From the sequence record MN709127.1: a stretch of DNA of 64,000 nt; one strand, given 5' to 3'. The notes under the pieces were generated by a model. That model was not told the origin of the DNA. It ran no database searches and was given only the letters and a program-made list of their open reading frames with translations. The DNA is from Escherichia phage Ec_Makalu_002. Below, piece by piece: positions 26,420-30,727 of this stretch. Within the stretch, counting starts at the first letter, position 1, and each line of letters begins with the position of its first letter. The position numbers and the translations under genes were made by a program.

Positions 26420-26638
26420 TTATTTATATCGCTTTCTCTCGCGACGTTTTTGATCTTCTTCCTTGATAGAGTTAAATGCATCAAAAAGACACATGACACT
26501 AATAATAAACATAACCGTATTTTCTACGATATCCCACGGCTTCGCATCAGTACAGATCCCCCAAACGGTAAGAAATGCAAATAAGGCAGAAGAGATCACA
26601 AGCATGATACTTGCTAAGACATAAAAGGTCATCTTCAT
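26420..26638 (-). CDS. small membrane protein
   Basis: 72 aa; hydrophobic helices; basic C-terminus RRERKRYK. Confidence 0.4.
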   Translation of the reverse strand: MKMTFYVLASIMLVISSALFAFLTVWGICTDAKPWDIVENTVMFIISVMCLFDAFNSIKEEDQKRRERKRYK

Positions 26639-26829
26639 GGTTTTACCTCAATTCTTCGATATTCATCACACATCCATGCAGTAAGCAAGAATCCCAACAC
26701 ATAAGCAACAAAATACGTTAATGCTTCTTCTGGTTCGGTGCTATGCGCCATCATCAGACCAGCGAGAAAGGTCTTAACAATTACATTTAAAATAATTAGC
26801 CACGCAAATAATTTCATCGTTTGCCCCAT
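26635..26829 (-). CDS. small membrane protein
   Basis: 64 aa, hydrophobic. Confidence 0.4.
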   Translation of the reverse strand: MGQTMKLFAWLIILNVIVKTFLAGLMMAHSTEPEEALTYFVAYVLGFLLTAWMCDEYRRIEVKP

Positions 26830-27053
26830 TTCGGTCGAGTCTTCTCAAACTTATACATTCCGTGACAATCTCGAATCATCCACGTAACAAGAGCACCACT
26901 CAACACCGACAGCACACAGAAGAAGTAAAACGGTCCGGTTGCATTATCAACATGAGCAAGCCATGTAAAGAATACACATGCTAAGAATGTAAAGAACATC
27001 ATAAAACACAAGAAAGCAAAATATTTTATGCTACTCATATCGCCACCATACAA
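26814..27053 (-). CDS. small membrane protein
   Basis: 79 aa, hydrophobic. Confidence 0.4.
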   Translation of the reverse strand: MYGGDMSSIKYFAFLCFMMFFTFLACVFFTWLAHVDNATGPFYFFCVLSVLSGALVTWMIRDCHGMYKFEKTRPKWGKR

Positions 27054-27141
27054 CAGATCATAAGAAACCCAAACGCAATAAGAATTGCATCAAATTTAGT
27101 GAACTCCGGTCCACCTATCAACATCATTCGTTCCTGTTCAG

Positions 27142-27339
27142 TCATAGATCACAGATCCATCTAAAAGCACCACATACAGCGATCAGGAGTGTAGGAACAC
27201 TTGAGAAGAAAACCAATGTACAAAAATCATCTAGTGTAATACCGGAATAACTACCGACTGCAATCACACCGATGATCAGACACAGAAAGAAAACAAATGC
27301 AATCAGAAACAAAGTATTGCTAAACAGTTTAGTGATCAT
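27142..27339 (-). CDS. small membrane protein
   Basis: 65 aa, hydrophobic. Confidence 0.4.
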   Translation of the reverse strand: MITKLFSNTLFLIAFVFFLCLIIGVIAVGSYSGITLDDFCTLVFFSSVPTLLIAVCGAFRWICDL

Positions 27340-27533
27340 TAGACACCCCCACGACGGTCAATTTCAAAAACTTTCTTATCACAGACAAAGCAGGTCACTA
27401 CAGCCTCATTGACTTCCGCAAATTGTTGTGTTACCCACTTAAGGTCAGAGCGAAACAATGTTTTGTTAATAACAAATGTTTTACCTTTCTTATCCTTACC
27501 CATAAATTTTGCTTTAACCATATCCAATTCCAT
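27339..27533 (-). CDS. hypothetical small protein
   Basis: 64 aa; CFVCDKK. Confidence 0.4.
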   Translation of the reverse strand: MELDMVKAKFMGKDKKGKTFVINKTLFRSDLKWVTQQFAEVNEAVVTCFVCDKKVFEIDRRGGV

Positions 27534-27542
27534 ATTATCACC

Positions 27543-27701
27543 TTATTTGCTAATCGCTAAACCTAATCCGAAGAGAGCACCAGACGCTACAGTATACCCG
27601 AAAGTTTCAAAGGCAGTCAAGATATCCAACCCACCAGCTAACAGAGTTGCAGTAAACAGAGTACCAGCTACGAACATAAAAGTTTTACCGATAAATTTCA
27701 T
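27543..27701 (-). CDS. small hydrophobic peptide (52 aa), below ORF-track size cut-off
   Basis: Hand translation MKFIGKTFMFVAGTLFTATLLAGGLDILTAFETFGYTVASGALFGLGLAISK; ATG follows GGAGAATCAAA RBS and promoter cassette (27700-27775). Confidence 0.4.
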   Translation of the reverse strand: MKFIGKTFMFVAGTLFTATLLAGGLDILTAFETFGYTVASGALFGLGLAISK

Positions 27702-27768: not shown

Positions 27769-28146
27769 TTAAGAAAATTTTACTTCGTCTACAATGTCTT
27801 TCATGACATTGATTTCCATTCCGGTCAGAACACGTTGGAACATGTGCTGCACATACGCTTTCAGGTATTCATTTGATGGCTTGCTATCAAAAGTCTTTTT
27901 AGTGTAGTAGTCATCACCGAAAGCTACTGTAATTACATTTTCGTCGTCGTTCCAGGCAATATAAGCAAATTTGCCGTTATCCCAGAATCGAGCACTAATT
28001 GCTACTTTCGTTGAATCGAATCCTACTTCGCTGTGAGATTCAAGAACTACTTGCGTGCCAGTTTCTTTATGAATGTAGTAGCGGGATACTAAGTCAAAGT
28101 TACGGGTGTAGTGACATTCGAATTTATCTTTAAACATCATCATCAT
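27769..28146 (-). CDS. hypothetical protein
   Basis: 125 aa; promoter/leader cassette upstream (28140-28215). Confidence 0.45.
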   Translation of the reverse strand: MMMMFKDKFECHYTRNFDLVSRYYIHKETGTQVVLESHSEVGFDSTKVAISARFWDNGKFAYIAWNDDENVITVAFGDDYYTKKTFDSKPSNEYLKAYVQHMFQRVLTGMEINVMKDIVDEVKFS

Positions 28147-28219
28147 TTTTTGATTCTCCTAAGTGTGTTTCGTTTCGATGTGTGCATTATGCTATAGTCG
28201 TTTATGGTTGTCAACACAT

Positions 28220-28254
28220 AAAAACAAAAAAACCCCGAAAAAAAATTTCGGGGT
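28220..28254 (-). terminator. rho-independent terminator downstream of 57B
   Basis: Hairpin ccccgaaa-uuuu-uuucgggg followed by a long U-run on the minus strand. Confidence 0.65.
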
Positions 28255-28260
28255 ATAGAA

Positions 28261-28731
28261 TTACAGTTTGGTCGTCCACTCCAGATCTAGATCTTCGACA
28301 TATTCATGTGATCGGACAATCTCTAAATCGAACTCTAGGTCAGTGCCAAATTTACGCGCGCCAACATCATAAGAAAGCGTGATATGCGGTACATATTCAG
28401 GATAATCCCACGTCGCACCTAAAGCAGTTCCGATATCGTGTCTGAATTGCATGTAGTCGCTTTCAAATGCCAGCACAAGTGCATTAGTACCGGATTGAGT
28501 TTCAAACACTTTCAGATGGCACAGAGAGCCTAAGAACTTCTCCCCTTCTTCTGGGATAAACGGAACATAAACACGAGAATATAAGATCGTGCTATGAAGT
28601 TTATCACGAGGAACGGCATTAGGCAGATCGTAGAACTCCTGCAATTTTTCAATGCGGTCTAGTGTATCCTCAGTGAATTTAACCGCCGCATATGTACCTT
28701 TAACGGATTCTCGAAACGGGGTCATAATCAA
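28261..28731 (-). CDS. 57B: 2H phosphoesterase, T4 57B / Acb1-type (anti-CBASS cyclic-nucleotide nuclease family)
   Basis: 156 aa; two H-x-(T/S)-x motifs (HSTILY, HITLSY); located downstream of 57A and gene 1 as in T4. Confidence 0.65.
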   Translation of the reverse strand: MIMTPFRESVKGTYAAVKFTEDTLDRIEKLQEFYDLPNAVPRDKLHSTILYSRVYVPFIPEEGEKFLGSLCHLKVFETQSGTNALVLAFESDYMQFRHDIGTALGATWDYPEYVPHITLSYDVGARKFGTDLEFDLEIVRSHEYVEDLDLEWTTKL

Positions 28732-28994
28732 GCCTCCGTGATCAGTTCTACTTCCTCTTTATCGTCTTCCGCTGCCTCGTCTTTAGGGAGAAGTGCTTTT
28801 ACTTCTTCGACAATAGCATCAAGGGAAACAGTGCCGTTTTCGTCTGGCTGAATACCCAGAATGCGTACCAGTTCCATCAAGACACGCTCACGATCTTTCA
28901 GTTGGCCTTCTAAGAATGCGGCTTTTTCTTGAGTGTCAAACAGACGTACTTTCAGGACATTAATCATTTGTTCATGCTGATTGGACATATTCAC
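28728..28994 (-). CDS. 57A: tail fiber assembly chaperone
   Basis: 88 aa acidic coiled-coil protein; resembles T4 gp57A as recalled; adjacent to gene 1. Confidence 0.7.
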   Translation of the reverse strand: MNMSNQHEQMINVLKVRLFDTQEKAAFLEGQLKDRERVLMELVRILGIQPDENGTVSLDAIVEEVKALLPKDEAAEDDKEEVELITEA

Positions 28995-29020: not shown

Positions 29021-29677
29021 TTAAAGGTTCGCGAGAATCGCGCTTTCAAATTCTTCTAATGTACCATTATTTATGATAATGGTTTCACCGTCAATAGGCA
29101 AAATTCCTTTTTCGGTGGAGTGAGTCGATACAATACCAGTATCACGCTGAATATGCAACACCTTAGCACCCATAGTACGCATGAGAGCAATTTCAATAGG
29201 CTGACGCACATCAACTACTACAAAATACCCTTCTTCATTTTTGCGCTTCATAAACTCATTCACGAAGAGATTACACCAATAAAGCGGATTAATCAAGTTA
29301 ACCATTATGTCAGTACCGAGAGTGGTTAACATGAGACGGATAGACCAGACGTTATTATGTTTTTCTCCGATCTCATTAACGACCTTGTAAATCTCAGCCA
29401 GACGGTCACATGTAAAGGAACTACCACCATACTTAGAATCTAGCATAAGCAGACACTGAATAAACCACTTATGCGCGGTGTAGGTATCAATACCTAGATC
29501 GGCTTCTCTGTCACGCCCTAACCCGTCAAAGTCAAGATAAGTCAGACCTAAGTCTGGTTGACATTCGCATAAGATTTCTTTGATCGGTGCTGCCAGCTGA
29601 TAACTGTGTCCATCAATGATTAACGCGGCAGTGTCTTTTCCTACGCGTTTTTTACCACAAAGTGCAATCAATTTCAT
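29021..29677 (-). CDS. 1: deoxynucleoside monophosphate kinase
   Basis: 218 aa; MKLIALCGKKRVGKDT P-loop N-terminus like T4 gp1. Confidence 0.85.
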   Translation of the reverse strand: MKLIALCGKKRVGKDTAALIIDGHSYQLAAPIKEILCECQPDLGLTYLDFDGLGRDREADLGIDTYTAHKWFIQCLLMLDSKYGGSSFTCDRLAEIYKVVNEIGEKHNNVWSIRLMLTTLGTDIMVNLINPLYWCNLFVNEFMKRKNEEGYFVVVDVRQPIEIALMRTMGAKVLHIQRDTGIVSTHSTEKGILPIDGETIIINNGTLEEFESAILANL

Positions 29678-29692
29678 AATATAAGCCTCTTG

Positions 29693-30283
29693 TTACTTTC
29701 TAAAAGCAGGGTGCATAGCTTTAATTCCTTCCACTCGCTGACGATCCGCCGCCTGAATTGCTGGGCGAGGAACGATCAGTTGACCATCACGTTCAATGCT
29801 CATTGTTTTAAATGGAAGAATTGCAGTACACACCAGAGATTCATGCATATCATCGGTGTATGTTAACTCAAGTTCCCCCAATTGTGAACACCAACAACCA
29901 TAAAAGTTAAAGGTGCATACAATGTTACGGCGTTCATTGTCCATCATGTGAACTTGAACGGCTTCCGGCATTGAATCCTTCCACGCGGTGGAGTTACCGT
30001 TATTGTAGTCTACTATAGAAAGCATCCATGTGTAAAGGTTTAGATAGCTTTCCAAATGCTCATCGACAATAAACCGGACTACCAGCGGGTCAAACTCTAC
30101 ATGACTGGAAGGATAATCAGCGACCGCCAAACCATATTGACCAGCAACTTGCTTAGTCGGTGGAATGGTTATAGCCGGAAGTGTAACACCTTGAGCATTT
30201 AAAGTAAAGCCTTTTGTTAGTTGACCATCTGGAATACTGATCTGCCAGTTACTAGGGTTAGCATAGTTAAAGAGATTAGACAT
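29693..30283 (-). CDS. 3: tail completion / sheath stabilizer protein (gp3-like)
   Basis: 196 aa; synteny between gene 1 and gene 2 as in T4; called mainly on position. Confidence 0.5.
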   Translation of the reverse strand: MSNLFNYANPSNWQISIPDGQLTKGFTLNAQGVTLPAITIPPTKQVAGQYGLAVADYPSSHVEFDPLVVRFIVDEHLESYLNLYTWMLSIVDYNNGNSTAWKDSMPEAVQVHMMDNERRNIVCTFNFYGCWCSQLGELELTYTDDMHESLVCTAILPFKTMSIERDGQLIVPRPAIQAADRQRVEGIKAMHPAFRK

Positions 30284-30472: not shown

Positions 30473-30727
30473 ATGACAGAAGACATTTTGTTAAAACTCT
30501 ATGATCGTTTGGATAACGAATTAGCAACATTGCGGGGTGAAGTTCTCTATTTGTCTAAATGTAATACAGATCTGCTTAAGCAGATTGCAGAAAGGGATGA
30601 CCAAATAAAATCCCTTTCAGGTGCATTACGTGACCGCGACAAGGCATTAGAGATTTTACAGCGTGTTACCAATAAGGAAGAATTAAAAGACTTCTTACAT
30701 GGTTATGCTCATGCTATCGATCTATAA
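30473..30727 (+). CDS. hypothetical coiled-coil protein on opposite strand
   Basis: 84 aa; GAGGA RBS 8 nt upstream; sits in an otherwise non-coding gap between genes 3 and 2. Confidence 0.4.
   Translation: MTEDILLKLYDRLDNELATLRGEVLYLSKCNTDLLKQIAERDDQIKSLSGALRDRDKALEILQRVTNKEELKDFLHGYAHAIDL

Follow-up and report, generated by a model that had tools for sequence, protein, structure and literature searches.

A 64,000-nucleotide stretch of DNA from Escherichia phage Ec_Makalu_002 (MN709127.1; hereafter the window) carries acb1, or gene 57B, whose product we regard as close to certain, from sequence similarity, to be a member of the Acb1 family and the Krischvirus ortholog of T4 Acb1 (gp57B). The gene is intact and real but already known: work published in 2022 described the Acb1 family, its structure and how the enzyme works. 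A sequence-only reading of this DNA had called the protein a 57B-type 2H phosphoesterase resembling Acb1, and database searches bear this out. Pfam PF23474 (‘Anti-CBASS protein Acb1’) matches at 174.4 bits (cutoff, 27; E = 1.5e-51), with protein residues 9–152 aligned to profile positions 1–143 of 144. A search of solved structures hits one protein only, Acb1 of Erwinia phage FBB1 (PDB 7T26 and 7T27; E = 1.8e-43, 152 bits, 53% identity), which is covered over chain residues 2–143 of 144. T4 57B (NP_049750.1), which Hobbs et al. 2022 (PMC9117128) established as the prototype Acb1, much as the sequence-only reading had said, aligns over its full length with 47% identity (E = 3e-47). PHROG 755, labelled ‘RNA ligase’, also matches (E = 9.8e-55); NCBIfam holds no family for the window protein. 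The gene and the parts of it that are discussed below are as follows.

28261–28725, minus strand: acb1 (gene 57B) coding sequence, 154 amino acids, ATG start, TAA stop at 28263–28261
28588–28596, minus strand: first H-x-T motif, H44-S45-T46 (CAT AGC ACG), aligned with T4 H44 and T46
28378–28386, minus strand: second H-x-T motif, H114-I115-T116 (CAT ATC ACG), aligned with T4 H113 and T115
28264–28284, minus strand: C-terminal lid segment by alignment, residues 148–154 (LEWTTKL), including W150 (T4 W147)

Both of the H-x-(T/S) motifs that had been picked out from the letters are present in the verified translation, HSTILY as residues 44–49 and HITLSY as residues 114–119. Two or more H-x-[TS] motifs arise in 13.7% of shuffles of the protein; two such motifs alone are thus not significant, and the case for Acb1 rests on full-length homology. 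Within that homology, both motifs align column for column with those of T4 and FBB1 Acb1. In the T4 enzyme, the catalytic tetrad is H44/T46/H113/T115, the bases are stacked by Y12/W74/F107/W147, E141 contacts adenine N6, residues 145–152 form the lid and the H44A variant is catalytically inactive (PMC9117128). The tetrad corresponds in our alignment to H44/T46/H114/T116 of the window protein, the stacking aromatics to Y12/F74/Y108/W150 and the glutamate to E144. Each of the nine positions to which Hobbs et al. 2022 assign a part in catalysis or base recognition is therefore conserved, two of them with aromatic swaps, and both swaps (W74F and F107Y relative to T4) give the residues found in FBB1 Acb1. 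The alignment with T4 Acb1 that the sequence-only reading had proposed as a check thus supports its assignment.

Six of these positions (Y12, H44, T46, H114, T116 and E144) are invariant in an alignment of seven Straboviridae Acb1 proteins from Escherichia, Erwinia, Acinetobacter, Aeromonas, Vibrio and Klebsiella phages, which are 34–53% identical to the window protein. The T4 and window enzymes have in common the tetrad, the adenine-reading glutamate and the lid tryptophan; they are nearly equal in length (152 and 154 amino acids, respectively), and differ at the two swapped aromatics and by one 1-residue and one 2-residue indel. The latter is an insertion relative to both T4 and FBB1, at approximately residues 131–134 of the window protein, before the C-terminal strand. 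The lid motif LDLEW is kept. By analogy with the FBB1 structure and a deletion of the T4 lid (PMC9117128; bioRxiv 10.1101/2025.08.21.671373), we infer that residues 148–154 act as a lid.

A single-sequence AlphaFold2 model of the protein has a mean pLDDT of 37.5, which is too low for use, so it is sequence homology to the crystal structure that supports the fold assignment. That homology makes it very likely that the protein has the compact 2H fold of FBB1 Acb1, including its U-shaped pocket and short lid at the C terminus. FBB1 Acb1, solved both apo (7T26) and with 3′3′-cGAMP (7T27), is the closest solved structure; the N-terminal nine residues are absent from the crystallised chain.

Because every named functional residue is kept, we assign the window protein the same activity as T4 and FBB1 Acb1, and consider it highly probable that it carries out metal-independent cleavage of adenosine-containing 3′–5′ cyclic di- and trinucleotides, blunting CBASS. 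Its substrates, chemistry and anti-CBASS effect are inferred from those two enzymes, and its exact substrate scope is less certain than its family membership. During infection, Acb1 would bind adenosine-containing 3′–5′ cyclic di- and trinucleotides (3′3′-cGAMP, cUA, cAAA and cAAG) in the U-shaped pocket, over which the short C-terminal lid would shut. Y12, F74, Y108 and W150 are predicted to stack on the bases and E144 to read adenine N6. The bound adenosine would be rotated so that its 2′-OH attacks the 3′–5′ bond, and the H44-x-T46/H114-x-T116 tetrad would cut 3′ of the adenosine, with the two histidines providing acid–base catalysis without a metal. Cleavage would pass through a 2′,3′-cyclic phosphate intermediate to a linear 3′-phosphate product. 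With the second messenger removed, CBASS effectors would not be activated and abortive infection would be prevented.

T4 57B is the cGAMP-degrading activity of T4 and is dispensable in hosts that lack CBASS; on CBASS hosts, T4 without acb1 has a more than 300-fold defect (PMC9117128). T4 Acb1 requires one or more adenosines together with a 3′–5′ bond and leaves cGG, 3′2′-cGAMP and cA4 uncleaved, and lysates of cells infected with T4-related phages do not degrade 3′3′-c-di-UMP (PMC9117128). Over-expressed T4 Acb1 degrades 2′3′-c-di-AMP and triggers Panoptes, and deletion of acb1 from T4 leaves Panoptes defence unchanged (bioRxiv 10.1101/2025.08.21.671373). The phages in the infected-lysate screen include vB_EcoM-G2494, which belongs to the RB49 species (Supplementary Table 1, PMC9117128). 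In the full-text literature we found no paper that tests a Krischvirus (RB49-type) Acb1, and there is no recognisable Krischvirus accession among the 16 tested PDEs in Supplementary Table 1 of the 2H PDE preprint.

These specificities narrow the resistance to ‘CBASS/Pycsar-type’ signalling that had been predicted from the sequence. The CBASS part holds, although partially, for signals that contain adenosine and a 3′–5′ bond. The Pycsar part falls away: Acb1 is CBASS-specific in published work, and we therefore predict no Pycsar resistance. Acb1 and the anti-Pycsar enzymes each target one system and not the other, and Acb1 served as the inactive control on cUMP (PMC9117128). Apyc1, the anti-Pycsar enzyme with an MBL fold that cleaves cCMP and cUMP, was rejected as an identity for the protein, which has no MBL Pfam match and no Zn-binding HxHxDH in its translation.

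The gene belongs to a closely related group of phages. The 2.8 kb of DNA around it matches Escherichia phage Ec_Makalu_001 at 99.1% identity and RB49 and Phi1 (Krischvirus) at 97%, and the protein is 100% identical to gp57B of Phi1 (ABR24636.1; genome EF437941). Across the Phi1 and RB49 group (at least 55 Krischvirus records), gp57B is the same protein with the same neighbours on both sides, and the DNA differences are synonymous only. A tblastn search found an Acb1 homolog in 1,475 phage records, of which 55 are at least 99% identical, 3 are at 80–99% and 1,417 are below 60%; these bands describe a tight genus-specific clade within a very widespread family. Krischvirus records label the ortholog variously as ‘RNA ligase’, ‘hypothetical protein’, ‘putative RNA 2...’ or ‘gp57B conserved hypothetical protein’. 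A protein that is 47% identical to the T4 enzyme would be expected to be included in the BLAST-based census of 273 phage Acb1 proteins by Hobbs et al. 2022 (PMC9117128).

The protein at the 57B position of Klebsiella phage vB_KpnM_05F (Slopekvirus; L006:2459–3079) has 207 amino acids, with an Acb1 domain (E = 2.1e-47) and a C-terminal extension of approximately 48 amino acids, and has no tryptophan at the lid position in the alignment. Judging from its sequence, this Slopekvirus clade may close the Acb1 active site differently. In Pseudomonas phage psageK9, gp70 (NC_074661.1; L007:1052–2851) is a protein of 600 amino acids in which a portal domain (PF06381, E = 5.3e-89, residues 38–385) is fused to a C-terminal Acb1 domain (PF23474, E = 1.9e-43, residues 457–598), encoded right after the terminase. 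This fusion suggests that Acb1 may travel in the virion of some phages as a portal component.

The leading alternative to a T4-like activity is that the window protein, though a member of the Acb1 family, acts on a different range of substrates from T4 Acb1: it might spare the Panoptes decoy 2′3′-c-di-AMP, for example, or favour other cyclic oligonucleotides, and would then have a different defence-evasion profile. The protein is only 47–53% identical to the tested enzymes and belongs to the tight Krischvirus clade described above, with the 2-residue insertion and the W74F and F107Y changes relative to T4. Enzymes of one structural group also differ in substrate scope, which is determined by the core of the enzyme (bioRxiv 10.1101/2025.08.21.671373). 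In that work, 2H PDE-9 (QRE00328.1; 44.8% similar), which falls in the same 2H structural group as Acb1, degrades 3′3′-cGAMP and spares 2′3′-c-di-AMP; with its other lid and narrower range, it indicates that substrate scope cannot be read from family membership. However, the base-stacking, adenine-reading and catalytic residues named for Acb1 are all kept in the window protein, and its aromatic swaps are those of FBB1 Acb1, whose crystal shows 3′3′-cGAMP hydrolysed in the active site. Compared by description, PDE-9 has an N-terminal lid and histidines 50 and 123, whereas the window protein has a T4-length N terminus, histidines 44 and 114 and the C-terminal LDLEW with its tryptophan. All nine further homologs tested by Hobbs et al. 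cleave cGAMP and cAAA (PMC9117128). We consider a shifted range unlikely, and retain an activity like that of T4 and FBB1 Acb1 as the preferred reading.

The database labels suggest instead a general RNA-end-processing 2H enzyme (a 2′–5′ RNA ligase or LigT-like CPDase) with a role in RNA or tRNA repair. Cellular LigT and 2′–5′ RNA ligases have the two H-x-T/S hallmark in common with Acb1, and Acb1 itself hydrolyses a 2′,3′-cyclic phosphate in the second step of its reaction. ‘RNA ligase’ is what PHROG 755 and many phage records say, but the RefSeq T4 record still gives 57B that very label although it is the cGAMP-degrading activity of T4. Pfam 2_5_RNA_ligase2 (PF13563, E = 0.0011) and LigT_PEase (PF02834, E = 0.057) do match weakly, but their scores of 19.4 and 14.1 bits fall short of the respective cutoffs (27 and 23.3), and Acb1 reaches 174 bits. 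The lid and base-stacking residues are Acb1-family features, and the ligand-specific positions (Y12, the aromatics at 74 and 108, E144 and W150) are kept in the window protein, so that a general RNA-end enzyme is very improbable and an anti-CBASS phosphodiesterase is favoured.

The open reading frame at 28261–28731 on the minus strand, which encodes 156 amino acids from a TTG, has exactly the extent given in the sequence-only reading, which named no strand; the start, however, is likely to lie not at the TTG (28731) but at the ATG at 28725, two codons downstream in the same frame. In Phi1, the gene for the identical protein is annotated with this ATG as its start (465 nt), and 28261–28725, encoding 154 amino acids, is on that account the best gene model. 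The signals that flank it are as follows.

28733–28737, minus strand: Shine–Dalgarno sequence GGAGG, read from the sequence, within the 3′ end of 57A and 7 nt 5′ of the acb1 ATG
28232–28254, minus strand: intrinsic terminator hairpin and T-run from the terminator scan, with a 9-bp stem including 5 GC pairs

The ATG lies 2 nt past the TGA stop codon of 57A (28730–28728), and translational coupling of acb1 to 57A is possible. The terminator hairpin starts 6 nt past the acb1 stop codon and folds as RNA at −14.2 kcal/mol (z = −2.89; 2 of 200 shuffles are equally stable). With a terminator directly after it, acb1 closes the 3-1-57A-57B block as its final cistron. Its GC content (0.42–0.45) falls within the local range (0.33–0.45) and thus gives no hint that the gene was acquired recently from elsewhere. 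The gene differs from that of Phi1 at 14 of 465 nt, and all 14 differences are synonymous in the minus-strand frame, which indicates purifying selection on this frame and counts against overlapping plus-strand reading frames. That acb1 is a decayed remnant, or that coding lies on the other strand, where short reading frames of at most 66 amino acids overlap it (28182–28382, 28268–28372 and 28438–28533), has practically no likelihood and is refuted by these synonymous changes, by a frame that is full length against the Pfam profile and the crystal chain with both motifs intact, and by the flanking Shine–Dalgarno sequence and terminator.

The position of the gene beside 57A and gene 1, noted in the sequence-only reading, is confirmed by Pfam and PHROG matches. 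The neighbouring features, from the upstream to the downstream side of acb1, are as follows.

30473–30727, plus strand: gene for an 84-amino acid protein, PHROG 17832 (unknown function; E = 2.1e-57), ORF130 in Phi1, divergent from gene 3
29693–30283, minus strand: gene 3, tail completion/sheath stabiliser (PHROG 45, E = 3.9e-43; Pfam gp19-like, E = 1.6e-7; Phi1 annotation)
29021–29677, minus strand: gene 1, dNMP kinase (Pfam DNMK, E = 9.1e-68; Phi1 annotation)
28728–28988, minus strand: 57A, tail fibre assembly chaperone (Pfam GP57, E = 3.2e-6, 27.3 bits against a cutoff of 27)
28214–28186, minus strand: sigma-70-like promoter, TTGACA-17-CATAAT, 11/12, the best match of the region, right after the acb1 terminator
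27769–28146, minus strand: gene for a 125-amino acid protein, PHROG 15253 (unknown function; E = 2.6e-87), downstream of the promoter-like site
27339–27533, minus strand: dmd homolog (‘discriminator of mRNA degradation’; Pfam Dmd, E = 5.4e-14; PHROG 2102, E = 2.5e-29)

Directly upstream of acb1 and in the same orientation, 57A also matches the tail fiber chaperone family PHROG 1002 (E = 2.2e-26), in agreement with the Phi1 annotation. Gene 3 is the first in a conserved block, whose 3-1-57A-57B order is found in the window, in Phi1, in T4 and in Straboviridae of four further genera (Acinetobacter, Aeromonas, Vibrio and Klebsiella phages); acb1 of the window thus occupies the same slot after 3-1-57A as in T4. 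Between gene 3 and the divergent 84-amino acid gene lies an AT-rich gap of 190 bp (GC content of about 0.33), which probably holds divergent promoters. The T4 late-promoter consensus TATAAATA does not occur on the minus strand at 28.7–30.5 kb, near the 3-1-57A-57B operon; across the window, it occurs 7 times, against 6.3 expected.

Downstream of acb1, the window and T4 differ. In T4, ipI follows 57B and a cluster of tRNA genes lies approximately 1.4 kb downstream of it, whereas ARAGORN found no tRNA genes in the 64-kb window, and no Rfam family of any kind reaches the gathering threshold there. The position held by ipI in T4 is taken in the window by the 125-amino acid gene, which has a sub-threshold match to Pfam Gp30.7 (E = 0.004) and is a candidate early, possibly counter-defence, gene. 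The dmd homolog follows approximately 730 bp downstream of acb1, with the 125-amino acid gene and then a 52-amino acid reading frame between them. Dmd is the T4 antitoxin against RnlA and LsoA. If the homolog is likewise an antitoxin, acb1 is again near a counter-defence gene, one that differs from ipI, near which acb1 lies in T4 (PMC9117128).

Seven small reading frames (36–79 amino acids) run back to back on the minus strand at 26420–27701, comprising the 52-amino acid frame between the 125-amino acid gene and dmd and six beyond dmd (26420–27339). Most are strongly hydrophobic, and several have overlapping start and stop codons. None of the seven has a Pfam match; their PHROG matches (15168, 15717, 15290, 15282, 17225 and 16462) are all to families of unknown function. 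A more speculative proposal, which we hold to be doubtful, is that the Krischvirus Acb1 clade, which is uniform within its genus and shares no more than about 53% identity with any assayed enzyme, has been retuned, for example to cleave CBASS signals but spare the Panoptes decoy 2′3′-c-di-AMP, and that the stretch from acb1 to dmd, with its 125- and 52-amino acid genes, forms together with the small membrane-protein genes beyond it an anti-defence island, with uncharacterised counter-defence genes at the place of ipI in T4.

For annotation, the gene should read acb1 (anti-CBASS phosphodiesterase), and not ‘RNA ligase’ or ‘hypothetical protein’. It brings no new biology, as GenBank has contained this same protein ever since the Phi1 genome was deposited. 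For host range, the phage is predicted to tolerate CBASS signalling that uses adenosine-containing 3′–5′ cyclic di- and trinucleotides; no tolerance is predicted for Pycsar, or for CBASS that uses cGG, c-di-UMP or 3′2′-cGAMP. Acb1 can also be a liability, as it may make the phage vulnerable to systems that use decoy nucleotides, such as Panoptes.
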